NCBI RefSeq assembly: GCF_964204645.1 | Contig: NC_134026.1 | Location: 31,096,150-31,160,149 of the forward strand | DNA length: 64,000 bases | Direction of reading: 5' to 3' | Source: Tubulanus polymorphus | Lineage: Eukaryota > Animalia > Nemertea | Shown: positions 13,844 through 56,800 of the stretch, piece after piece | Numbering within the stretch: the stretch's first letter is position 1 | Layout of the letters: each line of letters opens with the position of its first letter | Translations under genes and position numbers: made by a program | Notes under the pieces: generated by a model | What the model saw: only the letters and a program-made list of their open reading frames with translations | Told to the model about the DNA's origin: nothing | Database searches by the model: none

Positions 13844-17265
<3,422 letters not shown>

Positions 17266-19018
17266 CCGAGAAACTTCTTTTAGTTCATCAGAGCTCCTTT
17301 AGTTTAGACATTCTACTGAAATAATTTGCTTTTGAAAATAGTTTGAATATTGGTTTAAATGTATAAAGCTGTTTCATATACTGGTAATGTGTATGTGTCA
17401 TCTGATAACTGAAATTGTATGGTGCATTTAACAGGGTCAATATCAATTAGTGCCTTCTCGAAAATAGGTTTATTAATTATTCATTCATAATAATTATCAT
17501 CAATTGCAATATCGATTTTTATTAAAACATTTTGTAATTTTGTACATAAATGTAATCATTTTATTATCGAACATCAGTTTTATTAGTTTTTGTATTTATA
17601 AAAATAGAATGATAAAAATCTGTGATGAATTATACTAATTGACTAAAGAAAGATAAATCATGTTTCTTACAGATCAGGGATAATCAGATCACGCTGAGAA
17701 TATCTTTTATGATTATTATGATTTAATCTTTTTTTGTCTGCGAAGGTTAATGAAAATATGTGCGAATTTTAGATTTCCTGATCTGTAAGAATTCTGATAA
17801 ATTCCTGGTCGAGATTTCGAGGCATTTATTCACATCATACAAAATTGTCTCAGTATTTTGAATGAAAAATATAATTTGAAAGTAAGATTCTTGTTTTAAA
17901 GAAAGGTGGCTTGCTATATAAATGATTGATGTTGCTATATGTGTTGTTGTTTTTAAAATGTTCTTCCTGGTTACAAAAAATGATGCCAATTATAAAGTGA
18001 TATATGAATTGTAACATGTGTATTTTAATATCTAATTTATGAATATTTTTATAGAAGAAACAATGATTTTTATGTATTGAAATAAATCTTGTATTATATT
18101 TGAAGAAATTGTTAATAGTTCGGATTTTGTTTCTCAAATCGTTTCATCGGAACAACTAACAGTGAAAACAGATGCGGACGCTTTGAGATCTGACACATCA
18201 CACATAAGTGTGTTGAATGCGAACTCTGCTGTCCGACCAGTCACATCCTTCAATTTAGACTATCAGTTATGAAAAGGTTATGTTGAAATGTGTCTAATGT
18301 CGGGTGATTTTTATCAAAAATGTCACAGGCGAAGTCCTGAATACATGTGCAGTTCGGACGATGTGTTTTTGAAAGCGTGCCAATGTCCCAATGTCTGATC
18401 TGTAGTTCATTTTCCAATAAAAATGTCTCGGGTGAAGTTCTGAACACATGTGAAGTGTGGACGATCAATTTTTACATCACAAGACCCAAACATGAGGAAG
18501 CTAGCAGTATTTATTAAAAAAAGCACACAATTGTGTGTATAATGATATGTACGAACTTTATAGAAGAAAAAACTGTTACTGCACATTGTATTTGTACAAC
18601 TGTAAACTGTTTAATTTTTGTATCCTGTGCTCGAAAAAAATGTATAATTTCTGGAGCAATAAATTTAAATCTGAATCTGAATTTTTTGAAATTGCGCTGA
18701 TGTGTAATGTCTGATGTCTGTTGTTCATTTTCCATTCAAAGATGACTCAGATCTGAATCCCTGAACCCGAGAGACACATGATAAACAGCGGCCATTCAAT
18801 TTACACTCATAATGCGAGACAAGTTTCTTACCGATAAAACAGTTTATCACATACTCAAACACAAAATTCATAAATAGAGAAATGAGATTATATTTTTCAG
18901 ATTTCGAATTCAAATTAGAAATAGATAGAATTAATTAAAACAAATTGAATTGATAAGTGAAAATGTTTAAGTTTCGATCCATTAAACGATAGATTTATAA
19001 TGTCTCGTTGAATTACGT

Positions 19019-19380
19019 TTAGGAGCCTCTGAGACTCTTTCTCAACCTCGACAGTAAATTATCGGCTGACAATTGTTTTTCTTCCTCGGCCGCAGCCATT
19101 GCCCACAGTGACACAAATATTCCACATAGTGGAACAACCAATTTTGTAGACAATTCTCCTAAAAATACATACACTCATTGACACTAGCTTCTACGCCTAC
19201 ACACGGCTGGAGCTAACAGAATATTTTATATGAGAGTCTTTCTTTTCCGCGGTTCCTTCAACAAGAAGGATATTCCAGGAATACTCGATAGAAAGATGGA
19301 ATATTCGATATTCCAGAAAATGTTAGAAATATATTTGTTTATGTCTTAAAAGCAAAAACTGTAGTTTACTTACTGATCAT
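19019..19380 (-). CDS. Candidate spliced 48-aa secreted microprotein, join(19374-19380,19019-19158); upstream UTR exon 19531-19610
   Basis: Canonical YnCAG/TAG acceptors and GTAAGT donors, gccATG start. The splice gives MIRELSTKLVVPLCGIFVSLWAMAAAEEEKQLSADNLLSRLRKSLRGS*. Confidence 0.55.
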
Positions 19381-20343
19381 GGCTATACTGATAAAGTGTA
19401 AACCCTGAAAAAAAGTGTGAAATATTTATTGAGTTTGGACCCATTTAGCCGTCTGCCCAAGAATTTTCGTTTGTGAAAATTATCACAAGAGACAAAACCA
19501 GAAAACTGGAATCATAATTCATTTACTTACCGGTACGAACGTGCGTGCCTGATGGAACTAACTGAATTCAGCTTTTAATCTCATCCTGTGAGAGTCTGTT
19601 TTTTATAACCCTGGAGAGAGATAAGGGTTCAGAGTATTCTAGTAATTCAATATGACGATGTCAATTCATCGTTTGTTCAGTTTTAGTGAATGAGAGAAAT
19701 TTGAAGCCAGTTTCAATCGTTGAGTATAATGGTTTAGTACTTGGGCAAATTCAGCTGAATCGAGCACTATTTTTTGTGCTTTTTATCGGATGGATTTTAC
19801 ACTGAATTTATCATCCATATGTTAAATTTATTTCTTATAAAATCCAGTTTCTAAAAGTGTCCTGGTAAAATGTATAATACACTGGTGTTTTTAGTTCATT
19901 TTCAATAAAAATGTCTCAGGTGAAGCCCTGAACACATGTGAAATGTGGACGATTAGTTTTTGAAAGTGAGCTGATGAAATGTCTCTAATATTTGGTGTTT
20001 GTAGTTAATTTTCAATTAAAATGTTCCAGGTGAAGTTCTGAACACCGGTTCGAGTTCTTGCATGTAAAAACACGATCGATGAAGCCATGGACCGTAAAAC
20101 GTTTTAGAGTCCATCGTGGTGATACCCACCCACAGTGAGCTGGAAGTAAAGACCACTTGAATGACAAGCAATTTTCCAGTAACAACTGAAATAAACATTT
20201 ACCATAGTTACAGTACTTCACATCAATTATTTAAGTGAATTTTACAGCCACTCAGTAATCAAGCGTCTCACTTTATTAGTGTAAATATGCGTATGTTGTT
20301 AAACCAATGACTATCCAGATATGAAACGTATTTCAATGACAAA

Positions 20344-23300
20344 ATGGTGAATTTGTGGATTATAACTCTGATCGCAATTTCATTAACTGATTTTTGTCAG
20401 GCATGTTCGTGCAATGTTACTGCGACGATAGGTAATTCTTTTGTTGCGAAATCTTTCGTTTATCCACGAATTTGAAATTTACTCTCTTAAAAAGTGCGAA
20501 AAGCAAAAAGTGAAAATGATGATTTACTTGGAAGTAACTGATCGATTCGAATTTCAGGCGTTCTCGTAGATAAAAGTAATGATTTTGGGAAAATGAAAAC
20601 AGCAATTCGCAAAGCGTTAGAACCAACATCATGTGAAATGAAACTGGTACTGAAAGAGTTGAAATCATCAACTGATAATGAGGCTGGTATAACTAATGAA
20701 GGTCGGTTTAATATCTCCGACATCGATGATTTTGATGTCTTAAAACTTGTCTTAAAACGTTTCTTTTTAAAGAAGATTTTTGCCTGTTTATGTTAAGTCA
20801 CTGAGTTCTAATATTGATATTTCATTGCGGGGTGCGGGCAGTTTGTGATTTGGATAAAAATGGAATTTCTGTTTTGATAATGGTCACGAAAACCAAACCA
20901 GCTTCGTTATCACTATTCGAACAAATTCAACTTCCGGTTTTACAAATATCCTGGATTAACTACGTAAGTTCTTATAATGGGTATTGAAAAAAATTCTATA
21001 ATTCAAAAATGAATTTGATTATGATGGTCACATTATAAGTGCATTATTTGTTGCTCTCTATACAGGATGGAATCAGTGGTCGATTGAAACCAGGAAAATT
21101 TACCAGACAAACTGTGTTTATCCCTCAAATCCAGCTAATTGAAGTGGTTCAAGCTGCCATTGTCAAAGAGAAATGGAATCAATTGGTTTTATTCTTCGAT
21201 TATTCATCCGGTAAAAATTCCGTCGTCAGCCGCGATCGCCCATGGAGAGCGCCCAATTCGGGCCGGGTCAAATTTGGCCCGTGCCAAGATTAGGCCTTGG
21301 CCAATCGTTCAAGTACTGGTGTAAACTGGGTTTGAGTTTTTGTTTGACATGAGCCAAATTTGACCGGATTTTTGAACCAGAACCAGAACCAGGACCAGAC
21401 CCGTGCCAAACAAATAATCACCAATACGTAATTCCTTGTGGAACTAGCTGATTGGTTCTGGAAGTGACTAACCTCACTCATTAGCATGGATCAGACTCCG
21501 GGCCATTTTCATCCGGGTCAGGTTTTCTCCGTGTGATCGCGGCTTCAAATCAACAGTATAAGTCTTATCCGTTCTCAGACTTTATGCTTTTTTCAATTTT
21601 CGAAGCACTGATTTCTTTCCAAAAATATGGGAGGGTGAAGGGAAAAATAGAAATTAAAAAGATTCATAATAATACACGTTTTAAAATGGAAGGGATCAGG
21701 AAATAGATAGAAATAATTTTTTTTTATTATTTGAGTATTTTCCACAATTAACCTCGGAAGAACTGCAGAAGAAAATTTCATTGCATAAATAAATTGTGCT
21801 GCATTTCATTCAAATAATTGGAGAAATAACGAAAATACAAAGGGCTAAAAAATTCCATGTTGATGATTTTTGCAGAATTTGAGGAGCGATGATTAAAGTT
21901 ATTAAAAAAGATCTAGCAGTCGTTTATAGGCACAAAATATAGAAATTACATTTCGAAACTACTAAATATCACTAGAGTCGAATAAATTTCTACTTACAGA
22001 TAACATTATCGATATAGTCAACAGCATGAAACGATGGATTTATAAAAATATGATTAAAATAATGTCGTTTAATATGAACAAAACGACTTATAATAAAGAC
22101 ATCAAAAGACTTATCGAAACGGAAAATAGATTTCTTCTTATCTGCAGTCTTCAAAATATACAGCGTATATTCGGCTGGGTAAGTGACTTATCTGTACTCT
22201 CAGAGGATATAAACAGTCAAACTTACATCAGTCGATGTCATCAGATCAAGTCGTCACATTCAACTATCACAACTATTCTGAGTCTCAATTTGTATTGCTA
22301 ATTCAATTTACTAAATGTAAATCATCGTTTGGATAAGTCGTCACATCTACGACCAGCGAGTTTCACTGAATCTTCCAAACGTTTTTCCAACCCATGAAAT
22401 TCCATAGTTGCTATATATCTATTTATTGTAGGTTCACCAGCACGGTATATATAAATGGCATTTAACCGATAACTATTGGTTGATAGTTGGTGACAACTAT
22501 AATCACGCGATAATTGAAGACTTTCTTCACGACGGAGATAACGTGTTGGTTATTGATTATGCAGTAAACAAGAAATCGTTTATAAATCAGGTATTTATAC
22601 ATCAAGTATAACTGTTTTCTGTTTAGCTGAAACCGTGTGGGAATGCTGGATATTAGCGAGGGTTATTTCATATAGAATTAAAAATCTCTTGTCTTGGGGC
22701 TATAGTTTTCTTCTTCTTGCAGATGCATCTTTTAAAACATCTTGAAAAATGTTCCATCTTACGGTAGAAAGTGCTGACTTCATAAAAGTTTCTTAAGAAT
22801 CTGGATATAACTTTTTTTTTCATAAATCTTCTCTAGTTTTTTCTTCTTATAGATATTTCAATTGGATGATTTTCCTCAAATCGAATAAAAAGCTGAATTC
22901 AAAGCTAACCGGTTTTTTCTCGTTCCTATCGATGAGTCTTGAAAACTGCCCTCGAAAATACCTGGTCCTGGACATAGAAAACATTTCTGATCGGTTATGA
23001 ATGGAAAATAAATTCGACAAAAATCATGATCGAAATTAAAATGTCTTCGTCCTTTTGTTCAGGTTGTGTGGATTGTAGCATCGGTGCAAAGGGCTTTAAA
23101 CGAAACGATAAAATCAGGAGTGACCGAAATGAATAAGAGTTGTAGATATTCACAAATCGCGTGGCCAATTGGAAAAACTATTCTAGACAATATTGAGGTC
23201 AGTTTGCTGCAGGGGTGTTTTGTTTTAACTAATCTTACAGAACGTATGAATGACAAACGGCAAACTGCACAATACTGCAGTAAACCTCGGCTTACTTGGA

Positions 23301-26300
23301 GAAACTGTGACCACACGCAAAATTTGAAGTTAAAGATTGGAAAAAATTCATCTGGAATTCAGAAAATAATTTCTTTTTTTGTTCGAGTTGTTAAAAGTCT
23401 GAGTTGACAATGTCGGAGTTCAGTGAGGTATTACTGTACTGATTCGAGTTCAGCCGACCGTTTACTGGAGAATAATGCATTTTGGCGAATAGCTCTGCTT
23501 GCATGCAAGCAATTTCATTATAACGTCATTTTCTATATCGGAGATTAACTTTATATGAATAATTGGGTTTTTTTTTCCCACGACAGACACCTGGTAGAAA
23601 CGATAGTCAACAAGAAGGCAGTATAGACGTCATGACGGCATCAGTCAGACAACATCCAACTTTCAGCACAGTTCATAGAATTAGAAATATAAAGCAACTG
23701 GAACGTCTGGAAGTTCTTTATCCAATGAAAACATACGGATTTTGCAATAGAACTTTCCATGTTATGTCTATTGAGGTGAGTTTGTGACAACAAGGTTTAA
23801 AGTTGTTAAACTTATAGTTTCTTTCCCATCGATTATTGCCACATAAAATTTATTTCTTCTTTTAGATCTTCTAAATTCATAAATCGAATTAATCTATATT
23901 TATTTTACAGTATTTTCCCTACCACTTTTTCAATTTCAAAACCGGAAAATGGGAAGGAATAGTAATAGATTTACTGATCGAATTATCTAAACGTATGAAC
24001 TTCAGGTAACTTTCTCCACGCTTATCAAGCTCCACACAAAACATAGCAAATTAGCAGTTTTCAAGCGTCATTTTAACCCCTGTGAAGCTGGCTCCCGGTT
24101 CCCGGTTCCCGGTTCCTTATTCGGCTCCCGGTTCAAAAGCATTTTGAATCGGGAGCTGAACCAGTAGCCGGCTCCCGGTTCCCGATTCGGCTCCCGATTC
24201 AAAATGTTTTTGAATCGGAAGCCGAATAAGGAACCGGGAACCGGGAGCCAGCTTCACAGGGGTGTCATTTTAACACTTCTTCATTTTATTTGTTGTATAT
24301 AGTTATGTCATATCACCAGCACCTGATAACACATGGGGTGTGCCTAAGAATGGAACGTGGAATGGAATGATCGGAGCTCTTATCAAGAAGGTATGTAACT
24401 TTATTTAGAGGAAGTAATCCCTAGTTAGTTACCTTATCGTTGGTGGTAAGCTTTTTATAATCGGATGGGCTTATACCAAGAAGTGGTTTGTGAAAATATC
24501 CGATCGGGGAACTAAACCACAGTCAGGTTTAGAGAAATCCCACAATAATCACAATAATCCCACAAAGACTAATTAACCATCCGGATTGATGGCTGATATA
24601 GTCTTTAGCCGAAATGTTGCACTACTGTGTCATTAAGGGCTTCACATCTTTAGCTGAATTTATAGTGGGATTTCCCTCGTTTATTCATCTTACACGGGAA
24701 TTTATGTAATTCATCGACCGGGATTTATCAACCGAATATTCATCCACTGCTGTAGAAATGATGCTGGACTATATTTGCAGGAGACAGATATGTTAGCTGT
24801 TATATTGACTGTTACTGCTGAACGAAATGCAGTCCTCGATTATACAACACCGTTTCTCGATGATAAAACAATAATGGTCATAAAGAAATCGACATCTGAA
24901 AACATTTTCTTGTTCCTGTCGCCATTCTCGAATATGGTCTGGTATTGTTCCATTATTGCAGTACCAAGTAAGCTGGTAAACTTGTATTCTTTAAACCCCA
25001 AATTGGGACGGTTTCGACTTTATTTTACATCGTGAAGCCAATAGATCATTGTCAACATGTTCAGAATCTTCTAGTTATGGGTTATGTTTTTGTTTTCCAG
25101 CTATAGGTTTATTGCTGGCGCTATTCACGAGAATAACTCCGCACCGTGGTAAACAGAAGAACCACCCGCTGAAAGAACCAAAACATTCAATTTGGTACAC
25201 ATTGGGTTCGATTGTACAACAAGGTAGGGCCTTGGAAACACAGATTATACGTATCTCCCAATCTATGAAATCGAATGCTCAATGACTGATTCATTTTTCC
25301 CTTTTCAATGTCGTCAATTATTTTTGGCCGTATTTTGATATATCAGGGAAAGTTAATTGATTGTTTAATTGTTTCAGGTGGAGTACATCTTCCTGAAGCG
25401 CTTTCCGGACGGTTATTGGTAGCTCTTTGGTGGGGGTTTGTTATCGTCCTGTTGGCGTCGTACAGCGGCAGTTTAGTCGCGTATTTGTCATTACAAAATG
25501 ACAAACCTTTCATATCGAAAATAAATGAATTACCGGAAATGAGAGAGAAAGGTTACAAATACGGAGTATTGAAGGACGCCGCTCTGCAGAATATATTCCA
25601 GGTAAGCAACACCGCCGCCTGGATTTCAACCCTTACTCGTATTCGATCCAGTTCTACCGTTACAGATCGAATTCAGTTTTAATGTTTTAATCAATTCAAT
25701 GTTTTAACTTCTGGATCAAGCTTCACAGTCATATGGCTCAGATTTACAATTATATAAGCTCATTCTAAGCTAACATTTTAGTTATATAGCCAATCTTACA
25801 ACGTAAGACCAATTCAAGCTAAGTTTGGTCTAAAACAAATTAAAAAACTTAAAACCAGTCTAAGGCCTTCTTAGTTCTAAAGCCAATCTAACATTCTAAG
25901 ACCAGTCTATTTAAGATTAAAGACGATTTGATGGACTTTGTCATGGCTGTCCAGTTATATTGAACTCACCACGGTGTCCTGATTACTGTCGCCCTGAATC
26001 CAACAACATTCGTTTCTATGATGGATTTTTCGTGTTTAACAGACGGCTACAGATGGAATCTATGAAGAAGTCTGGACCGGAATGAAAGACGATGAAAACA
26101 ATTTCATGCCGACAAATTACGACGGAATGAAACGTGTTTTAAACGATAAATACATTTATCTTACATCGAAATATTTGCTGGAGTCACGAAATATGAGTTT
26201 ATTCCCTAAAGACGAACAGTGTTCATTAACGCAAGCGAAACAAGAGTTTCTAGGGACGTATTACGCATTGGGATTCCCTCAAGACAGTCCACACGTGACA

Positions 26301-27795: not shown

Positions 27796-30700
27796 CTATA
27801 TTCCTTGAGTGATTGTAAAATCTGACATGTCCTCCGATGGTTTCAATACTAAATTCTGAAGCGAAAATAAATCAGTTTCATTCATTTATTAATCCGCAAA
27901 ATTGTTTTAAATTTTAATTAATGAATTTTCGTTCAAAGTCTCAGATTGAAAACTATAATTTACAGTTCATTAAGGAACTCGACAATAAAAATAATGGAGT
28001 TCAACTCTCACATGAGTAAGGTCGGTCATCATTGACTTTGTTTTTCTAGGGTTCATACTAAACTAGTGGAGGAAGAACAGAGCTGAATTTCATAAACATT
28101 GGGGAGCAAAATAATAATCTTTGTGAACATTTTGAAATTTGTCAGTTATTACCACAGTTCTTCAATCTTTGTAACACTGAGGATTTACCCGTGGGGTTAA
28201 ACTTTGATATCCAGGCTATGAAACCAGGCCCAGCAGGTAAAGGATTAACCCCTAGGGGTAGCTTTGATACCCGGTCTATGAAACCAGGCCCAGCAGGTAA
28301 AGGATTAACCCCTAGGGGTAGCTTTGATACCCGGTCTATGAAACCAGGCCCAGCAGGTAAAGGATTAACCCCTAGGGGTAGCTTTGATACCCGGTCTATG
28401 AAACCAGGCCCAGCGGGTAAAGGATTAACCCCTAGGGGTAGCTTTGATACCCGGTCTATGAAACCAGGCCCAGCGGGTAAAGGATTAACCCCTAGGGGTA
28501 GCTTTGATACCCGGTCTATGAAACCAGGCCCAGCAGGTAAAGGATTAACCCCTAGGGGTAGCTTTGATACCCGGTCTATGAAACCAGGCCCAGCAGGTAA
28601 AGGATTAACCCCTAGGGGTAGCTTTGATACCCGGTCTATGAAACTAGGCCCAGCGGGTAAAGGATTAACCCCTAGGGGTAGCTTTGATACCCGGTCTATG
28701 AAACCAGGCCCAGCGGGTAAAGGATTAACCCCTAGGGGTAGCTTTGATACCCGGTCTATGAAACCAGGCCCAGCGGGTAAAGGATTAACCCCTAGGGGTA
28801 GCTTTGATACCCGGTCTATGAAACCAGGCCCAGCAGGTAAAGGATTAACCCCTAGGGGTAGCTTTGATACCCGGTCTATGAAACCAGGCCCAGCGGGTAA
28901 AGGATTAACCCCTAGGGTTAGCTTTGATACCCGGTCTATGAAACCAGGCCCAGCAGGTAAAGGATTAACCCCTAGGGGTAGCCTTGATACCCGGTCTCTG
29001 AAACCAGGCCCAGCAGGTAAAGGATTAACCCTATCAATGAAATCTAGGGTTTGCTTGGTATTCTTAAAACAATCAGGTCGAATGAATACTGTTAGATAAT
29101 GGACTCAATCAATAATCTCAATGGATCAATCGTATATTTACCTTTTCATTAGCAAGATGTAGTAAACAAACAAATGCGATCGGAACGCTTAAATTCTTCG
29201 CCATATTTTTGGAGACTTTATTCGGTAGAACGTCGACGAGTTCGCTGAATGTGTGAGTTCCGTTGACGCTATCGTTTAAACGAGGCGTTTGAGGAGTTTC
29301 ATCATTCTCCTGTTAAACATAAAATACAACAGTCAAATTAACTCCGACAACAAGAATCAGGGTTCGTCGTACACTTCAACCGGAATTCCAGGAGGTGTAT
29401 GAACCCTGAAGAATTGAACTAGAAATCTAGCAGCAGACAGTGTGCGCGTTGCCCCAGATCTCACGGGACCAATAAATTCTCAATTCGAGGTACCCGGCGC
29501 ACCCGCAGCAGGGATGGGTCATTATCAAGATAGATTGAAATAAGAAAACATGTTTGGTGCATGCTATAATCCGAGATAAGAGTCTGTACATAGGGTCAAA
29601 ATTTCTTCAAGAAATCGGAGGATATCGAACTGATAAGAGAATAATTTATGATGTAAATGAAATGAAATGAACGCTATCAATATAAATAGCTACCTGTACC
29701 TTGTCACCCTCGGGGGGAACCATTAAAACATTCCACATACTGTGCTTCAATTTTTTCACGTCCATTTTTTTCGCAGCTTTAGCGTAAGCGATATCGATTT
29801 TACTGACCTGTAATCAAACAAATTTAACTCGTATTATTTTAAACTGGAGACCAATAACAGGAACCGAATCCTCAACTATTCGAATCCAGGTTTCATGAAA
29901 AAGTTAAGCTCTAATTTTTGGTTTAATTACTGAATTGATTACTTCATATTTTCAATAAGAACAATTCAAACTCAACCGTTTCAAAATTGGATCCTGATCT
30001 TACTTTTTTTGGTTGTTCGAGTAAATTATCTCCGGTTAACATCGAAGAACCTTCACCAGCGCCTCCGACATCATCACCTAGAAAATTATCGGCGGTTTGT
30101 TGACTTAAATCGGACATCTGACTGAATTCACCTCCAGCAGTGAAATCAAAACCACCAGCATCGTCATCATCATCTTCCACTGCAGCAGTCTGTATTCAAT
30201 AGAAATATACATTCAAAATAGTTATGTAGTATTTTCACCCCTCCCCCTGAGAACTGGAAATCACGAACTTACATCGGCTGGACAGAAATTATCGCGATCA
30301 TTCGCGTTATCATAATCATAATCAGCGACACTAGCGTCGAGATCTTCAGTTGAGTTGTACGTCTGTCGTCGAATCTATTTCAAATATAATTAAAATTAAT
30401 TTCTAGGAAACGCTTTTCAAGATCTAGTTCCACAGTTGTGATTTAGAGATAGTTAGAATAACATTGACCAGGTATAAATCAAAGCCTGTCTATAGGGAAC
30501 GCGTGCGAGACCAAGCAAGAACTGTTCACTGTAGACATTTTTTTACTTTAGTTTATTTTCAATGAGTTTTAACTCTGAAATCTCAACTGTGGAACAGGAT
30601 ACTGGATCCAGTTCCAGAGTTAGAGTTAACTCTGATTGAAATCTTAACTTTCTAATCTTCTAACTTTTTATAATGTGATTTTAGAATGTAAAGTGCTGTG

Positions 30701-33700
30701 GTTTAGTTCTTAGAAACCGTGCTACCGGGTATATAAGAAAATATATTATCATTATTATTATAACTACATTTACAGCTGATTACCGGTAGTAGAAACATGT
30801 ATTTCAATACTTACTAAAACTTTCGGTTTTCCAAACAATCTGAATAGTTCACAAGGGTCGTAGTGTAAATCATCTGGTAATGTTAACATCGTGGAACTGT
30901 ATTTATTTAACGTTGCTTTATTCACAGTCGTTGCTGCCCTCGTTTTCTTGAAATAAACTTCAAAATCAACTGCCTCCGAATCATAATCTATTTTAAACGC
31001 TGCCTTTTTAGTTTTCGGTTTCTTTTCTTTCGACACGTCTGAAATATTCAAGTAAAAAAAAATTGACCACTTCTCCCTTCTGACGATCAGCAATAACTTT
31101 CGGTAATTTACGTACCTTTAGTCTGTCCCTTGACCTTCCAATGCGAAGGTCCAGCCCACGTTGTAAGCAATGAAGAATTGAAGTATGAATATTCACTAGG
31201 TTGCGTAGATAGAACTTGTATAAGTTCTCCGACTGTTCCACTTCTATCAAATCATCGAAACAAATACAAAATACAGTAGACCGTTATTATCTCAGATATC
31301 ACAGGACTGATCAGTTTTCTGCGAGTGAATTGCGAGGCTTGCAGAGTCCAGTGAACAGATTCAGAACTTACTTGATATTACTAACTACACTATTAACCAT
31401 ACGAGCCTCTTGACTATCACAACGTATTTCATCAGATTCACCGAAAACTTCATCACCTCGATCTAAAAAATCATATCAAACATGACGTGAATCTACTAAA
31501 CGCGGCTAGGATGGTGATTTTACACCGAGGATAAATTGAATTAGAATAGAAATCGGGACTCAAAAATAGAGATAAACTTTAAAGGCCAGGGTAAAAAGAA
31601 GTACTAATAACTTCAAGGACTTTTTCGGCAATTTTTGACTCGAAAATAAGTACTCTCCAGTTAAATGAGGGCCCATAAGGAAGCATTTTCGCAAAGCCTT
31701 TGCCGGAATACTAGTCATGTAGACCAATCATATATACCAGGCTAATTCCATAACACTTTCCTTCAGTCAAATTTGGAAGGACTTTTTTATCAAAAGGAAG
31801 GACTTAGAGCCAAAGAGAAGGACAAAGATGATGTTTGTCCAAACTTTTTCCAAAAGAAGGACAAAGAAGGACTTGGAAGGACCGCTGGAAACCCTGTTTA
31901 GAACTGCCGTATTATAGCCTAAAGGTCAACCCCTGTTTTGGGCTAATCAATTCAAGTTAATGTAGTATGAACTGCTGTTATAACTACATCAAGTTGTTGT
32001 TTGTTCACTCACCATCAGCAGCACCGTAATCCTCATCATCCGTGTAACCCTCGTGAGTAGGTTGATACTGGTGAGGATCGTTAGGAATCGGTTCGGGTTC
32101 TGCTTCCATATCGAACGCGTGACTGTCGGTTTTACCAAATAAAACACTCGACGAACCCTACACAAATAAATGAACTAAATTTAACTGATGGACCGACATG
32201 ACTAGACTGTTTGATACTGATTTAACTGAGGGACCGACATGACTAGACTGTCTGATACTGATTTAACTGAGGGACCGACATGACTAGACTGTCTGATACT
32301 GATTTAACTGATGGACCGACATGACTAGACTGTCTGATACTGATTTAACTGAGGGACCGACATGACTAGACTGTCTGATACTGATTTAACTGATGGACCG
32401 ACATGACTAGACTGTTTGATACTGATTTAACTGAGGGACCGACATGACTAGACTGTCTGATACTGATTTAACTGAGGGACCGACATGACTAGACTGTCTG
32501 ATACTGATTTAACTGAGGGACCGACATGACTAGACTGTTTGATACTGATTTAATGCCGTTCTCTTGTTAGTCACTTACGAGACAATTTTTATCCCAGTTC
32601 GTAAATGTGAAATCAGCGAATGCTGGACACACTTGAACATCTTCAAAATCACGTCCTCGGAACTGACCTGAAAATAAATCACATTCTTAATCACAGGTTT
32701 ACAGGGTTCATAGTTGTAAGGCTAACTGGTTGATGTGGAACTGGATGTATAACTGGTGGTTGTGGAACTCACTGGACTCTGTCGATATATCGAGAACTTT
32801 TTCGTGTTCGTTAATAGTTCTATGGGTTGTTGCCATGACGACTGCGTTTGAATCGAGCTGTAGCTGAGATGAGTTGTCGACTGTGTATAGATGATTCAAT
32901 AACAGACCGGTGGTGCCACCTTCATCGAACGTCGAAGCCATTTGATGAAATAACGGATCAACCTGGAAAACATTGTAAAACCATAAAAATGATTCGGTTA
33001 TAAATAGAGTCGGCTGTGCTTCTGTCTCCAGACTGCGTGTCTAGGAGCTGATTGCATCACACGCCACGTATCATAAAATATCTAACTCCAATTCATATAA
33101 TAATGAGCCATCCGTGCTCCGGCTACCTCGGAGTAAACTGATTGGATCCGAAGCAAGCGCCGTCTACTGGAGGAGAATATTACTTAAAACTCACCTCAAA
33201 TTCCAGATCAAATTTTTTCACTTTGATATTTTTGAGATTTGTTTCTACTGTTTTACCGGACTGAAATGAGAACAATATACAATATCAAACATACTCGAGA
33301 TTGATATATCAAGAGTGAAATCTCAAAATAAAAATCTCAGATATCAAGTTTTCTTATCCTGCCGACAATTGAGGAGTTCAACTGATTTTACCAGGAACTC
33401 GATCAATCAATTTGAAGGTCAAATTTGCGCAGTGTTGTCATCATAGATTTTCTGAAGTTCAGGCCCCGAGTTACAGTTAGCCAAATGAGGAACCGAGCGA
33501 GGGGAAGATTGAGGTTTTCTTACCCTTCGAAATCGTTTCTGTTTCTTAGCCACTTGTTGTGAACAATCCTCCTGATTATCAACTTCATTCCCACCATCTT
33601 CCGCATTATTCGAATCTACGATAAATCAAATTCATCTTGTGAAATATTTTAAGACCAAGATTTTAAGGGGCCACGCATCCATGAGAGGGACAAAGTCAAA

Positions 33701-35038
33701 TTTTCACTATGTAGATTATGCTCAGAATTATGATCTTTATTGATGAGGGAATTTTTTAGAAATATTCCAATGAATTAAGAGAGAAATCACGGGTGAAATG
33801 AAAACAAACCTTTCTGTCCGAGTCCACCTAACATTTTATACGTATCTGAGTGTATCGCATCAACTCTTCCCGCGTATATTTTAGCACTAGCGTCTAACGT
33901 AGAACTAGCAACCTGTATAATTATAATCCATTCATTACAAATCAACCGAACGCAATTAAACTTTTCACGGACCTAGAAATGTTTAAAATTTAATACCTGA
34001 AAATTGCTCATTTCTTTTTTCTTGATCAGATCAGCCATATAATCGATAAGATGAAGACCAAATGCATTTTTCGCATTAATTTTCTGTAAAAGAGAATTAT
34101 TTTCTAAAATATTTTCAGCCACATTTGAGTTGATCAGAGTAGTCACTAGTGTTATCCACAATGCCTCTTGCACTAAATCTAAGAACTCAAGTGGTTGAGG
34201 GAACCTGACTGGTTTGAAGGATGCTCTGAATGGAGCTCAGTTTGGGTTGAAGGAATTTAACTTACATTTTCAGCTGATAATTTGATACAGTTTGTATAAT
34301 GTTCAGATAGTTGTGCGTTACTGAGACCGTGGAGAGGAGCCGTTCGAGATCTGAAACAAATCAAACTCCAGTCATCACAGTGTCACATTAATGAAGTCAT
34401 CTCTATTTTTGAGTCCCAATTTTGCAATTCAATTTACAAAAGTGTAAGTTATCATTTTGATAAATCATCAGTTGCAAGTCGGGCCGGTTCCATAGTCGTG
34501 GCTTAGACTTAAGACCAGTCTAAGACCATCTTAGTTCTATAACCAATCTAACAACTTAAGACCACTTTTCGTCTTTTAGACTTAAGTCTCGACTATGGAA
34601 CCAGCCCCTCAAGTCTTGTCGACTTGAGTTCAGTTAAACTCGAGTTAAACATCTCTATTTTCTAATCTCAATTCAATCCAAATGACGACTTACACTTAGT
34701 AAATTATACGTCTAATTCAAGTACAAGTCATCAATCAGTCACAGACATCAGCTGTGAGTTTCATCATACCTGTCAGTAGGACTGGATCCAGGGCTGCTCA
34801 GGTGCATTCGTTGAAGTTCTAAAACTTTCGATCGGCGTCGAGCTTTTTTCTCCGCGATGTCGTCGTTCTCCCGGGCGACGCTCGTCGGGGACGACATCGA
34901 CCCGGAGCCGCCGCCCGTGAACACCGACACATGACGTCTCGTAGAGGGCGACACGTAATCCTGTCGAGGAGTTACAGTCTGAACGTGTGAAACACTTCCT
35001 CCCCCTGTCGGTGTTTTAAATACACTATCAGCCGCCAT
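27796..35038 (-). CDS. NCAPH: Condensin complex subunit 2 (kleisin, Barren/CAP-H), multi-exon
   Basis: [12 protein letters not shown]; [31 protein letters not shown]; [24 protein letters not shown]; [25 protein letters not shown]; HCLQRGLDL-region exon; [18 protein letters not shown]; [17 protein letters not shown]. Confidence 0.96.
28200..29032. repeat. Intronic 60-bp minisatellite, ~14 near-identical copies
   Basis: Consecutive 60-nt lines repeat almost exactly; each unit contains the palindrome ACCCCTAGGGGT. Confidence 0.97.
32180..32552. repeat. Intronic 41-bp minisatellite, ~9 copies
   Basis: TTTAACTGAKGGACCGACATGACTAGACTGTYTGATACTGA. Confidence 0.95.
34481..34608. mobile_element. MITE family A (~130-190 bp); other copies ~37890-38075, 48549-48697, 57063-57200, 57932-58195, degenerate at 25713-25952
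   Basis: GGGCC(A/G)GTT(C/G)CATAGTC(A/G)TGGCTTAGACTTAAGACC...GACTTAAGTC..GACT(A/G)TG(G/C)AAC(C/T)GGCCC. Confidence 0.85.
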
Positions 35039-42104: not shown

Positions 42105-45100
42105 ATGAATGAATTAGTTTTCCTATGGGGCCCATCAAATGTGGTAAGAAATATAAGATGGAAGAAATATTCTATACGCTATCATGCCATGGCTTATGAG
42201 AGTGTCCGTAGTTTATTCTGGATTTATGTGTGGCCAAAACGAATGCACCCAGTAGTTTTTCAAATGCCACCTAGATGGCGGCAAAGTCTGGTCGAATATT
42301 TTTTCGGAATCGCTTGCGGTCAAACGCCGGGACGATTAGAAAATAATTGATAATTCACGAATTTCGTTCTCATTTTCAGGGGAAATCGATTCACTGTCAT
42401 TCTTTATCGGGTTTGAGTTTATCATCGACGAAATGGTTCGCAGAAAATCCCGAATCAGGATTGCGTTCATTTATTATGCACGCAACATCACTAATCAAAG
42501 AGGTAAAAATGCATTTTTGTTGCCTTTTTAATGTTTTTCACTTTGTTTTGTTGAAACTTTAGAACTCTTTGATTTTAGAGTAAGAAAGTCATTATAGATG
42601 ATGACACCACATTGAAAGTTCGTAAAGCATTTATTGACTTCATAAAGAAGAAGGTATTTAAGAGATTTTATGCCAATGATGATAGTGAAAATTATGAAAT
42701 CTGAAGTATATGTTGTCCATGATTTCAGTTGGATATAAGATGCAAGTTTTCGTGCATCAAATGCTTCCCAAAGTTCGGTACAGATCAACTATTATGGGCT
42801 AGAGAATTCAGGAGAGCCGAGATAGCAAACGAAAGCATTGAAAGAGTCCATATTACTATTGACGATGGCGTCTTAGACTCGTGGAAATATAACGATAGTC
42901 AATTACATTGTTTACCAGGTTAAACATACACATGATATTCAGAATCGTTTTGTAAAAAAAAATATTTCAATCCTTTTCAAAATTCATCTGTTTGATATTT
43001 GTAGACTGTCCATCGAAAACCGAGGAAAACTTAGAGATTACAGAAATAAAGTTGCCTTTGATCTTTCATTCGTTTTATAAGGTCATCCATTCTCCTATTT
43101 GAATAACGAACTCATAGATCGTCATATGTCACGTACTAAGTATGTTTTGTTGTATGTTTACAGGCAGATAAACCATGTTTATTAATTGAACGCGAATGTT
43201 TTATAAATACTGATGCTTCAAAACTTAAAAACATCATTTCTCATTGGTTGAATTTAAACCCTATAGGATGGATAGTAGTAATTACTCCTTATTCACCAGG
43301 TATAGTATATATCTTGCACATTTTGAGATGAAATATAGTGGAAAATGTTATGCAGAATGAGTTTGTTTACGGTGCTATTTCAGGATCAAGTTTTCAATCA
43401 CGTTTATCAAAACAGAATGAAGTTCTTAGACATTTTATCACGCAGGTAAATGAGGAAAGTGTTTGTCGATTCTTTCGATATTATGAATTTTCAAATTGAA
43501 TGAACGGTTGTTTTTTAAATACAGTTAGAAGTTCCGATTTATGAAGTGAGTTTAGATGAAGCAATCGGAAAGAGCTCATTTTTACAGCCTCCACAAAGTG
43601 GATTATTAGCATTCATTCATAGATTGTTCCTCATCAATTTACATCATAAGGTAATTAATAATTATCACACTATAGACTCCTTACTAAATTCGGTGCATTT
43701 ACTGAAAAGGTTCGCTTGTTAATTCACTACTGAACAAGGCAGGACCAATTGTATTTACAGTAGATATGTCCAGTAATTGTCAGTAATCATGATTTTCCTC
43801 TAATAGAGAATTGTTTATACTTCAGTACACGTTGCTTCTGTGTCAGTCTCCAAATCTCATCAAATGTGCAATAAATATTGGAATGAAATACATGAAGGTA
43901 AAATAACGAAATGAAAATATTCCTGAACGTTCGAGAAAATTGCATTCACTCGATATTTTACCTGTTTCAGAATGAAAAAGTGTTAAAAGACCCTAAACTG
44001 GTATGTCTTGAAATAGAAAGCTCAATTTCAGTCACTGGATTCGAGAAATGGGTCATAGTTTTCACAATTAATGTTACAGATAGTGTGCAATCAGGCATTT
44101 AATAAACCTGCAATACCCGAGATGTTGTCAAGCATAGAAACTAAATGGATGTTGGATACAGAGCCAGATTTAACTATACCTCTACAACATCTAAACAGAC
44201 GGCAAACTGAAAACAACTGGCTTCATATCCACCACGATGTTGGACACGGGATTTCTGTGCATCTATTCTGCAAAGATGAAATGACGTTAGGAAGGTATGA
44301 TGAAATTTCTCGTCAAGTTCAGATCACCAGCATTGAACACGAAATAAGATTTAGATTGAATATTTTTTCTGATCTGATGCAGATTCACTGAGAAGCACAT
44401 CGAAACGAGTACTCCAATACATGAATCAGGAAGTAGACTAGTACCAGACACAGCCGACCGAGTGGAGTTTCTCAACCCGACTTTTGATCAAGATGAAAGT
44501 ATTCTAGAAACGACGACATCTGAACAACGTCCCCGTGAAAACAGATCAATAGAATCATCGAAACCTAAGACAGTTGTTTTATCATCACCTAATAAACGTC
44601 AATTACCGGCTTGGATGAATACATCGCCTAAAAAACATAAATATGTCAAACGGTAAATATAGGTCCCACACCTGAAGAGTAAAACTTCAAGGTCTCTTTT
44701 TTCTTGCTGGTGACAAATGGCACGAGAAACTCCTTCAGAAGAAACAGAGGGAATTGTGGTTCCCTGATTTTTATGAATCCAGCACAGTCATGATTAGGTG
44801 CAATGAGGGTGGATTCTAAAATGCATGAATGTTACACAAGGTTTTGATGAATCTTTGATTCAATTGTTTTCATATGGATTTATTTTTTTAGAGGAGTTAT
44901 AACAACTAAATATATCCTGACTCCTGATGAACTTGTACAAGTTGCTAAACAAGTATTGGACCAGGTAAACACTGAATTAATGTTCAAATAATCAATGAAT
45001 GTTTTTATTTTGATTTGTTGTTGATATTTGTTTTAGGAAAATAGTGATGAGGAAATGACGGAAATGCAGCAGCCTGTTACAGATGCACCAGATCAGCAGC

Positions 45101-45636
45101 AGCCTGTTAAAGATGCAATGGATCAGCAGCTCCCTGTTACAGGTGCAATGGATCAACAGCTACCTGTTACAGGTGCAATGGATCAGCAGCAGCCTGTTAA
45201 AGATGCAATGGATCAGCAGCTCCCTGTTACAGGTGCAATGGATCAGCAGCTACCTGTTACAGGTGCAATGGATCAGCAGCTACCTGTTACAGGTGCAATG
45301 GATCAGCAGCTCCCTGTTACAGGTGCAATGGATCAGCAGCTACCTGTTACAGGTGCAATGGATCAGCAGCTACCTGTTACAGGTGCAATGGATCAGCAGC
45401 TACCTGTTAGAGGTGCAATGGATCAGCAGCTACCTGTTACAGGTGCAATGGATCAGCAGCTACATGTTACAGGTGCAATGGATCAGCAGCTACCTGTTAC
45501 AGATGCACCAGATCTAGCAAACAGCAGTAAACATAGACTTGAAGAAGATAAGACGGATCAAAACCAGAAACTGAATCCAATCTCGAATAATGTAAAGAAA
45601 CAAACTGAAATCGATTTGTCATTTTTAGATTTTTGA
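42105..45636 (+). CDS. Uncharacterised polynucleotide-kinase-like protein: P-loop kinase, degenerate HAD-like domain, Ku-binding/CYREN-like module, 10-aa repeat tail (14 exons)
   Basis: Phase-consistent GT-AG exons 42105-42143, 42380-42502, 42579-42653, 42729-42918, 43005-43081, 43164-43299, 43384-43445, 43525-43650, 43826-43897, 43971-44000, 44080-44294, ~44382-44652, ~44892-44964, 45037-45636. Motifs: ELVFLWGPSNV|GKS, KKVIIDDDTTLKVRKAF, QPPQSGLL, CAINIGMKY, KRQLPAWM, TKYILTPDELVQVAKQVL. Confidence 0.8.
45065..45513 (+). repeat. Coding 30-bp tandem repeat (AMDQQLPVTG), ~15 copies
   Basis: In frame within the last exon of the PNK-like gene. Confidence 0.9.
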
Positions 45637-53800: not shown

Positions 53801-56800
53801 TCGAAACGTCGTGTATTTTATATATTTCAGATTGTTCGAATAAATAAATTCTTGTTTTTAAATTCTTTTAATCTGTAGATAGTGGGTTTTTATCTTATTA
53901 GCCAGTAGAGAGTCTGTAATCTGGAAATGCTATTCTTAAACTGGAATACGTTCAATCAAAACCTGCTTAAATTATTATATGTTCAATGATGAATTCTGAG
54001 TTAAATTCTCCTCTGATTTTATCTTTATTTATTTACAGTTGACTTTGACAGAAGAATTGTTCTCGTGTATGACCGATCATAAATTCAACGTAACGCCTTT
54101 AATTGATTTGACGAACGATGCTAAAGGAACTGCTCAATTATTACTGGATCATTACGTTCATATTCAAGGATTTACAATCTCACAGGTAACAGTAGCGCCA
54201 TCTACACAAACTATTCATAAACTATCAGCTAATTAAGCCCCCCTCCATCCTCTGAGCTTCAATCAGCAGATTGCAAGAGAGGAACCAGGATTTGAACCGC
54301 AGGACGGTGGATTGATGAGCGGTTTATGGTACCCACTCTTTCAACCACCCCACCCACTCACTCACTCACCCATACACCCACCCACCTCACCCACCCACCC
54401 ACCTCAAACACCCAACCACCGACCTCACCCACCCACCCACCCACCTCACCCACTCAGCTACATCTCTTGTATTGTCGTCATATTTTGTAGATGATTCGTA
54501 AAAGTGTTGAAACGAGAGACTGGCAAAATACGATCGAACCGCGTAACGTTCGAGCCGTCATGAAACGTATTGTTGAAGATATCACGGCAACAGACGGACA
54601 AGTTGGTCAGTTATACGAGGAGGGGACGCGGAAAGAGAATAGTGACTCGAGTAGGAAAACGTATAGTGTTAGTAAACCACCTCGATCGCAATGGAGTTAT
54701 ACACCCAGGTATAATATATACCACACAACTTCAATACCTACTAAATCACTCTATTTTCATCTGTGTGGGATTGATTTATTTGGATATTTCGCTTAATCTA
54801 TTTGAACACATACCTCAAATCGGTTTAAAGACATCCAGTGAGACAAGTATATCCAACCCAACTCAATACTACAGTGAAACTTTAAAGCCTAACTCACCCA
54901 GTCCTAGTTCATGGTACTCTATACTATCAAACTGACCACACGGGTGTTAAGGTTCTCAGTGAAAGCTTACTAGGACATGGCCAGCTCAAGACTTTTCACT
55001 ATCTGGGACAAAACATGAAATCATTTTCTAATTTCCTTTTCTTGTTTTCCGTTCACCCAGTCCTGGTAGTGTGGTTGTCTCCAGAGTTGTACATCAGAGA
55101 CTAGGGTTGGAGTTGTCCAGGACCACTATGTAACACTGGGTTCACCCAGTCCTGGTAGTGTGGTTGTCTCCAGAGTTGTACATCAGAGACTAGGGTTGGA
55201 GTTGTCCAGGACCACTATGTAACACTGGGTTCACCCAGTCCTGGTAGTGTGGTTGTCTCCAGAGTTGTACATCAGAGACTAGGGTTGGAGTTGTCCAGGA
55301 CCACTATGTAACACTGGGTTCACCCAGTCCTGGTAGTGTGGTTGTCTCCAGAGTTGTACATCAGAGACTAGGGTTGGAGTTGTCCAGGACCACTATGTAA
55401 CACTGGGTTCACCCAGTCCTGGTAGTGTGGTTGTCTCCAGAGTTGTACATCAGAGACTAGGGTTGGAGTTGTCTAGGACCACTATGTAACACTGGGTTCA
55501 CCCAGTCCTGGTAGTGTGGTTGTCTCCAGAGTTGTACATCAGAGACTAGGGTTGGAGTTGTCCAGGACCACTATGTAACACTGGGTTCACCCAGTCCTGG
55601 TAGTGTGGTTGTCTCCAGAGTTGTACATCAGAGACTAGGGTTGGAGTTGTCCAGGACCACTATGTAACACTGGGTTCACCCAGTCCTGGTAGTGTGGTTG
55701 TCTCCAGAGTTGTACATCAGAGACTAGGGTTGGAGTTGTCCAGGACCACTATGTAACACTGGGTTCACCCAGTCCTGGTAGTGTGGTTGTCTCCAGAGTT
55801 GTACATCAGAGACTAGGGTTGGAGTTGTCTAGGACCACTATGTAACACTGGGTTCACCCAGTCCTGGTAGTGTGGTTGTCTCCAGAAATGTACATCAGAG
55901 ACTAGGGTTGGAGTTGTCCAGGACCACTATGTAACACTGGGTTCACCCAGTCCTGGCTCTCTGTCGCTCTACGATCCTAGTGTCTGTGGTACATCAGAGA
56001 CTAAGGTTCTTGGTGAATCTATAACTCAAACTTTACTTATCTCAGACCATTTTTGCCACTGGTCCCAGTTTCTGTGAGTTAGACGAGGATAACTGTGTAT
56101 ATTGTAGGCTGTCTATCTACCATACTGATAATATATTGTAATGTAATGTTGTATTATATTGTAGCACTATAGACAACAGTCTCATGTCAAACATACAGAA
56201 ATTGTTCTCAGAGAAAATTGAAATATTCAGCGCCGTAGAATTTTCCAAAGTATCCGTTTTAACTGGTATCATTAAAATAAGTCTGAAGGTAAGAAAAACC
56301 TATCAATATTTCATCATTTTTTATTTGTTTATAAACGGTAGTTTAAGATTTAATGAATATTTATTTGTGTTTTTTAGACGTTTCTGGAATGCGTTCGATT
56401 AAGAACCTTCGGTCGATACGGTTTACAACAAATACAAGTTGATACACATTATTTACAGTTATATTTATGGAGATTTGTATCTGATGAGAAGTAAGTACCA
56501 GGTTATGTGATACCTGCTCATTAACGTCAACTGTGTGTGAACCACTGTTCTATTTTAGCACCTATGGGGCTATAGAGTGTTACGAACCTCAAACTGATGG
56601 AGCTCGGTGTGGTTTCAATAGATTTTGACTCATTTTCTCTGCAGCATTTCAACACTCATTTACTTCCATTCCGACAACGCTATTATAAGTAGCTTTATTA
56701 ACAGAAGATTAATGTTACGGTATATAGATATGCTTAAGTCTTTTGACAAGACATTATTAGCAATACAGTGGATAAACAATTACCTGATACCTGATACCCT

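Follow-up and report, generated by a model that had tools for sequence, protein, structure and literature searches.

Several known kinds of small gene product and transcript resemble the locus described here. Toddler/Apela are reportedly secreted signalling peptides, conserved in vertebrates and with a known receptor, which are produced from RNAs first annotated as non-coding. Cecropin- and andropin-type antimicrobials, as well as the seminal peptides of insects, derive from precursors of about 50-60 residues that combine a signal peptide with a cysteine-free helical peptide. Long non-coding RNAs that are divergent from, or antisense to, a promoter are spliced transcripts with short exons, lying head-to-head with a neighbouring gene and having no detectable conservation. 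Finally, PMC11674832 describes an sCDS class of insect smORF genes, typically of 70-80 aa, that have fewer than 100 codons, a single N-terminal hydrophobic helix and an ORF whose GC content equals or exceeds that of neighbouring coding exons, and that are easily missed by annotation; for its Drosophila member CG34250 (54 aa) there is both conservation among dipterans and proteomic detection. According to PMC4359375 and PMC11674832, 32% of the annotated small-ORF proteins of Drosophila have a predicted membrane helix, and most small ORFs on its non-coding RNAs show poor translation and carry no bioinformatic markers of function.

Here, we analysed a minus-strand locus lying within a window of 64 kb (the whole stretch of DNA under analysis). 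Five public runs (X1-X5) carrying one organism label were mapped as contigs on the region, over the stretch 18900-23400. Run X4 is RNA-like, with four intron-skipping joints that have canonical ends, and none of these joints occurs in X1-X3; the RNA evidence consists of the contigs of this one run, from one sample. A preliminary description of this DNA had proposed three small minus-strand exons with strong splice signals; these exons, with GT..AG signals, are indeed present in the sequence at the predicted coordinates. A 249-nt spliced X4 contig (depth 34.2, 0 mismatches) joins 19022-19157, 19374-19403 and 19530-19611; both of its joints read CT..AC on the plus strand, i.e. GT..AG on the minus strand, and it matches the two introns predicted between these exons exactly, including the junction 19374>19158. 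The prediction is thereby confirmed: the minus strand gives rise to a spliced RNA with these exon junctions, apparently an unannotated one. The features of the transcript, in its own 5' to 3' order, are as follows.

20130..20699, minus strand: upstream exon, with its 3' end at the demonstrated donor 20130 (808-nt X4 contig joining 19582-19609 to 20129/30-20699)
19611..20129, minus strand: intron A, 519 nt, GT..AG (X4 joint 19609/20129, ends CT..AC, cut +1)
19531..19610, minus strand: non-coding leader exon, the first of the three exons in the preliminary description (sequence and spliced X4 contig)
19405..19530, minus strand: intron B, 126 nt, GTAAGT...CAG (X4 joint 19403/19530, cut +1, depth 34.2)
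19374..19404, minus strand: 31-nt exon holding the start codon (sequence and X4 contig)
19159..19373, minus strand: intron C, 215 nt, GTAAGT...TAG (X4 joint 19157/19373, cut +1)
19019..19158, minus strand: coding part of the last exon (sequence; RNA contig over 19022-19157 only)
18974..19018, minus strand: presumed short 3' UTR (sequence)

Read in the sequence, the exon 19610-19531 has an acceptor ending in CTCTCTCCAG and the donor CCG/GTAAGT, and the exon 19404-19374 has an acceptor ending in TTTTTTTCAG and the donor TCA/GTAAGT, while the third exon begins at 19158 after an acceptor ending in GTATTTTTAG and extends to a TAA at 19021-19019. The last base that the 249-nt contig covers, 19022, immediately precedes the stop codon, so that the genome alone provides this codon and the 3' end. 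In the presumed 3' UTR 18974-19018, the sole poly(A)-signal-like hexamer is TATAAA at 18999-18994. The contig ends at 18974/18976 were considered as an RNA 3' end and rejected, as they belong to the DNA-like runs X2 and X3 and start at a GATC site.

The remaining runs were read as follows. X1 is DNA-like, with a uniform depth of about 33 and long contigs that are colinear with the genome through introns B and C. X2 and X3 gave short, patchy, unspliced contigs, of which 3 of 10 in X2 and 1 of 9 in X3 (where another starts 2 nt away and has 10 loose letters) start exactly at GATC, against 0 of 8 in X4. We therefore take X2 and X3 to be restriction-ligation (Hi-C-like) DNA libraries rather than RNA, and an interpretation of their unspliced cover as intron retention was rejected on the same ground. 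X5, guessed to be RNA, has no contig on the region. The sequence of exon 3 is identical in DNA-like contigs of the two samples S1 and S2.

Scripted joining of the exon coordinates yielded an intact frame of 48 codons encoding the same peptide as had first been proposed from the letters. Its ATG (19380-19378, context gccATGa) and the in-frame stop upstream of it (TAG 19560-19558, 17 codons away) are both present as claimed. The ATG lies 7 nt before the donor of the 31-nt exon, and the frame crosses the next junction in phase 1, so that the third codon is split and the coding part of the last exon comprises the final two bases of that codon, 45 whole codons and the TAA. This last exon encodes a predicted hydrophobic signal or anchor segment followed by a polar tail of 22 residues. 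If intron C were retained, the frame would be closed by a TGA at 19177-19175, 6 codons upstream of the acceptor. The start codon of the 48-codon frame is thus shown to be supplied by splicing. The leader exon 19531-19610 itself contains an 8-codon upstream ORF (ATG 19584-19582 to TAG 19560-19558).

The transcript does not begin where it had been thought to. In a second X4 contig (808 nt, depth 9), 19610 is spliced to the donor 20130 (TGG/GTGGGT) and is hence an acceptor in use; the exon 19531-19610, previously taken as the first, is therefore internal and the transcript start lies further upstream. The upstream exon ending at 20130 had been overlooked; it falls within the 5' end of the opposite-strand receptor-like gene or adjoins it. 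The 808-nt contig is colinear to 20699, skips 20702-20841 (plus-strand GT..AG) and extends as far as 21048. Because its introns have both orientations, it merges RNAs of the minus and plus strands that overlap or abut; the start of the upstream exon is consequently not fixed by it. Donor 20130 is 214 nt below the predicted ATG of the neighbour (20344), and the upstream exon may run antisense across the neighbour's first exon. Its longest ORF (83 codons, low complexity, antisense to the neighbour) was judged unconvincing. A third X4 contig (345 nt, depth 14) is unspliced over 19582-19926.

A repeat family with units of about 80-110 nt flanks the small transcript, with copies at 18292-18488 and at 19883-20045, the latter within intron A. 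Its depth in X1 (about 34,000 versus about 33 for single-copy DNA) suggests of the order of a thousand genomic copies. It is also abundant in the RNA-like X4, and causes many false 'joints' that connect 184xx with 199xx.

The neighbour on the opposite strand contributes two features to this region.

20344..20431, plus strand: predicted first coding exon of the neighbour, with an ATG and a hydrophobic signal-like start (sequence reading)
20702..20841, plus strand: neighbour intron, GT..AG, between exons 20558-20701 and 20842-20963 (X4 joint 20699/20840, cut +2)

A further intron, 20432-20557 (predicted donor 20431/20432), was predicted by eye and is unspliced in X4, whose 808-nt contig runs from 20130 to 20699 without a break and thereby spans both the first exon and the first intron predicted for the neighbour. 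Plus-strand exons at 24658-25682 match the ligand-binding and channel families of ionotropic glutamate receptors (iGluR), as well as kainate and AMPA receptor structures. The 5' exon 21039-21293 has no PDB match and no homologue in the protein collection; with no relatives detectable for the 5' exons, we infer rather than observe that the exons at 20.3-21.3 kb join those of the iGluR at 24.6-27.1 kb. This 5' part of the neighbour (20344-21293, plus strand) could be a very divergent amino-terminal domain or a separate gene. The head-to-head arrangement with an iGluR-like gene that had been announced therefore holds as regards an opposite plus-strand gene, whose receptor identity comes from the later exons and whose 5' linkage is presumed. 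The candidate small-peptide gene and the plus-strand receptor-like gene have a common upstream region, this receptor-like gene being presumably the 5' part of the downstream iGluR-type gene.

Downstream of the small transcript lies a plus-strand WBP1-like gene ending near 17.1 kb. More generally, the window is AT-rich eukaryotic DNA (GC 0.32-0.46 per 2 kb) with short exons and many minisatellites, and its Pfam-supported exons belong to a DEAD-box helicase, Vps51, RNase HII, condensin subunit 2, BCCIP, the WBP1-like gene and the iGluR. Two minisatellites (15185-16049 and 16251-17029) lie inside or adjoin the WBP1-like gene (plus strand, exons 13861-14112, 14912-15142 and 16058-16318); one has a 48-nt unit repeated 18 times, the other a 27-nt unit repeated about 22 times with higher-order periods of 54 and 81 nt, and both are open in several frames. 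Other regular arrays were found at 28180-29031 (60 nt x 14, 97% match), 45066-45507 (30 nt x about 15) and 55051-55956 (89 nt x 10, 99% match). The 30-nt array falls within an open frame of 199 residues (45037-45636), as a 10-residue repeat that may be coding.

Our tentative interpretation, held with slightly less than even confidence, is that the 48-codon frame of the spliced minus-strand RNA is translated into a small protein of the secretory pathway by way of a predicted N-terminal signal peptide. Translation would start from the ATG that splicing brings into frame, and the hydrophobic core (residues 9-26), after a short n-region, would carry the product into the endoplasmic reticulum; given the short length of the product, this targeting would be post-translational. 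Signal peptidase would then cut after residue 26 and release a linear, cysteine-free peptide of 22 residues, acidic then basic. Without cleavage, one would expect a micropeptide that spans the membrane once, with this tail again facing the lumen or the outside.

The main alternative, which we consider only slightly less likely, is that the promoter region of the receptor-like gene gives rise to a divergent or antisense transcript that is non-coding, its 48-codon frame being due to chance and either untranslated or translated but functionless. The position of the upstream exon speaks for it, since this exon ends at 20130 and shares one X4 contig with the 5' exons of the neighbour, a layout typical of non-coding divergent RNA. 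The fact that the start codon arises through splicing only speaks against it. We compared the two explanations with regard to the length, the codon usage and the predicted product of the frame.

Dinucleotide shuffling produced a frame of at least 48 codons in 454 of 5000 sequences for the minimal spliced transcript (296 nt), in 542 of 2000 for an unspliced leader from 19926 (612 nt) and in 964 of 2000 for the model including exon 20699-20130 (866 nt). The length of the frame alone is thus within chance (9-48% of shuffles), which speaks for the non-coding explanation. The number of ATGs upstream of the start (1 in the minimal leader model, 5 in the 612-nt one and 9 in the 866-nt one) likewise favours an absence of coding when the longer leaders are considered. 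In the minimal transcript (exons 19610-18974), however, the 48-codon frame is the longest, and the leader contains a single upstream ORF of 8 codons.

Codon usage was scored with a log-odds model trained on the 956 Pfam-supported codons of the window, which separates true-exon chunks from chance frames no more than moderately well (AUC 0.77). The 48-codon frame scored 0.061 and the other two frames -0.14 and -0.14, a ranking that counts against a chance origin. Of 111 chance frames, 21% reached the same score, and of 28 true-exon chunks, 39% fell below it; the likelihood ratio is near 1, so that the test is uninformative, a point in favour of the non-coding explanation. The GC content of the ORF (0.44) exceeds that of the introns (0.33-0.35) and of the 3' flank (0.24), but the non-coding leader exon reaches 0.425 too, and the raised GC is therefore not specific to the ORF.

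The predicted product provides the one feature that favours coding. By simple rules, its N-terminus fits the classical n/h/c layout of signal peptides, with a predicted cleavage site. The n-region (residues 1-8) contains Arg, Glu and Lys, for a net charge of +1 with the free amino end not counted. The h-region is an uncharged run of 18 residues (9-26) with a mean Kyte-Doolittle hydropathy of 2.18 and 11-residue windows up to 2.47; such a run is long for an h-region and would fit a membrane anchor as well. Small residues at positions -3 and -1 of the cleavage site are expected from the von Heijne rule, and alanines 24 and 26 occupy these positions ahead of the acidic tail. We applied layout rules to the 193 ATG frames of 35-90 codons in the 64-kb window. 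A strict rule, which was devised after the peptide had been seen, retained 4 of the 193 frames, one of the four being the real last membrane segment of the iGluR, and two looser rules retained 7 and 16. Only 2-8% of chance frames in the window thus combine a hydrophobic start with small residues at -3 and -1 ahead of a polar tail, which favours coding over a chance frame. Set against the Drosophila base rates given above, of which the poor translation of small ORFs on non-coding RNAs supports the opposite conclusion, this rarity raises the odds of coding several-fold without settling the question.

The functional labels that had been attached to the peptide fared less well. The 22-residue tail has a mean hydropathy of -1.14, is acidic then basic with a net charge of +1, and contains no cysteines. 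The 'basic amphipathic end' ascribed to it is weak, since besides this low charge its best 18-residue helical moment (0.42) was matched in 959 of 5000 shuffles. The tail accordingly lacks the clear net positive charge and the amphipathic helix of an antimicrobial, and no family match supports any of the labels. In neuropeptide precursors, the mature peptide lies between dibasic sites, often with a C-terminal Gly for amidation; here the sole dibasic pair, Arg-Lys, is inside the tail at 5 residues from the end, and there is no Gly-dibasic motif. From the preliminary description, the spliced transcript, the intact frame and the head-to-head layout are thus retained, whereas the neuropeptide, antimicrobial and toxin labels are not.

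Protein searches used the 45 exon-3 residues as query. A word-indexed search of proteins of 24-79 aa gave no candidate, phmmer found 0 hits (E<=0.001) among 1.84 billion representatives, Pfam gave 0 families and the ESM Atlas no usable match. With tblastn of the peptide on the window, only its own locus was recovered (next best E 0.12), hence no paralogue, in tandem or elsewhere in the window. The collections searched thus contained no protein similar to the peptide. One metagenome match (L001, 38% identity), the only one of 595 pattern matches to pass tblastn, lies inside a long intronless gene-like frame, and its exact agreement with the query is limited to one word of 8 residues; it was judged by eye to be due to chance. 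The candidate small-peptide gene appears to be lineage-restricted. The lack of any homologue, family or paralogue in the collections searched is also what a non-coding transcript would give, and as these collections did not return the peptide itself either, it says little on conservation. In Rfam, the stretch 18500-20800 matched only SCARNA7, at 15.9 bits versus a gathering score of 65, so that the introns hold no known small RNA.

A more elaborate version of the coding interpretation would see here a young, lineage-restricted gene for a secreted peptide that originated on the divergent antisense RNA of a gene of the ionotropic-receptor type, with a common promoter region, co-expression and a peptide acting in the same sensory or synaptic setting; we regard this combination as improbable. 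Finally, it is very improbable that the three exons form the 3' or an alternative end of a larger minus-strand unit, for instance by read-through from the condensin-subunit gene at about 30.7-34.2 kb, with the small frame in an untranslated region: the acceptor 19610 is in use, no 5' end was found in the X4 contigs and the nearest upstream Pfam-supported minus-strand exons (30773-34236) are indeed those of the condensin subunit 2 family, but no joint leads to anything above 20699 within 18900-23400, the upstream exon carries no convincing ORF, and three introns after the main stop codon would normally mark the RNA for nonsense-mediated decay, as introns in that position do.

If the 48-codon frame is translated, the locus would be an unannotated and apparently orphan secretory-peptide gene in an insect-like genome, of the sort that is routinely lost to annotation cut-offs and of which some prove to be hormones, immune effectors or membrane regulators. 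It would also illustrate neatly how a coding frame can arise on an RNA associated with a promoter, as its upstream region is common to an iGluR-type gene. If it is untranslated, the locus adds one more spliced divergent non-coding RNA. The practical value of the result is chiefly a correction of the annotation.

Compared with the systems described at the outset, the locus is nothing new in kind: as a candidate, it belongs with either the small-ORF genes or the long non-coding RNAs, both of them well known. With the promoter-associated divergent or antisense long non-coding RNAs it shares the head-to-head position, splicing, short exons, the lack of detectable conservation and an upstream exon in the 5' region of the neighbour; what sets it apart is the secretory-type N-terminus of its frame, and no more than 2-8% of chance frames in the window show this layout. 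With the cecropin/andropin-type effectors the predicted precursor has in common its size, its signal-peptide plan and a cysteine-free tail, but this tail differs by its net charge of +1, an amphipathicity not above that of shuffles, the lack of a family match and the lack of tandem paralogues in the window. The resemblance to genes of the Toddler/Apela type lies in a short spliced RNA with one small frame led by a signal peptide and a predicted peptide of a few tens of residues; no sequence similarity was found for the present peptide, whose function is only putative. In PMC11674832, CG34250 has the support of conservation and proteomics, whereas the present frame is predicted from sequence and RNA contigs; the present ORF is also shorter than is typical of the sCDS class and may follow a long leader. 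The present frame is nevertheless like the members of this class in counting fewer than 100 codons, in having a single N-terminal hydrophobic helix, in an ORF GC content at or above that of neighbouring coding exons and in being easily missed by annotation.
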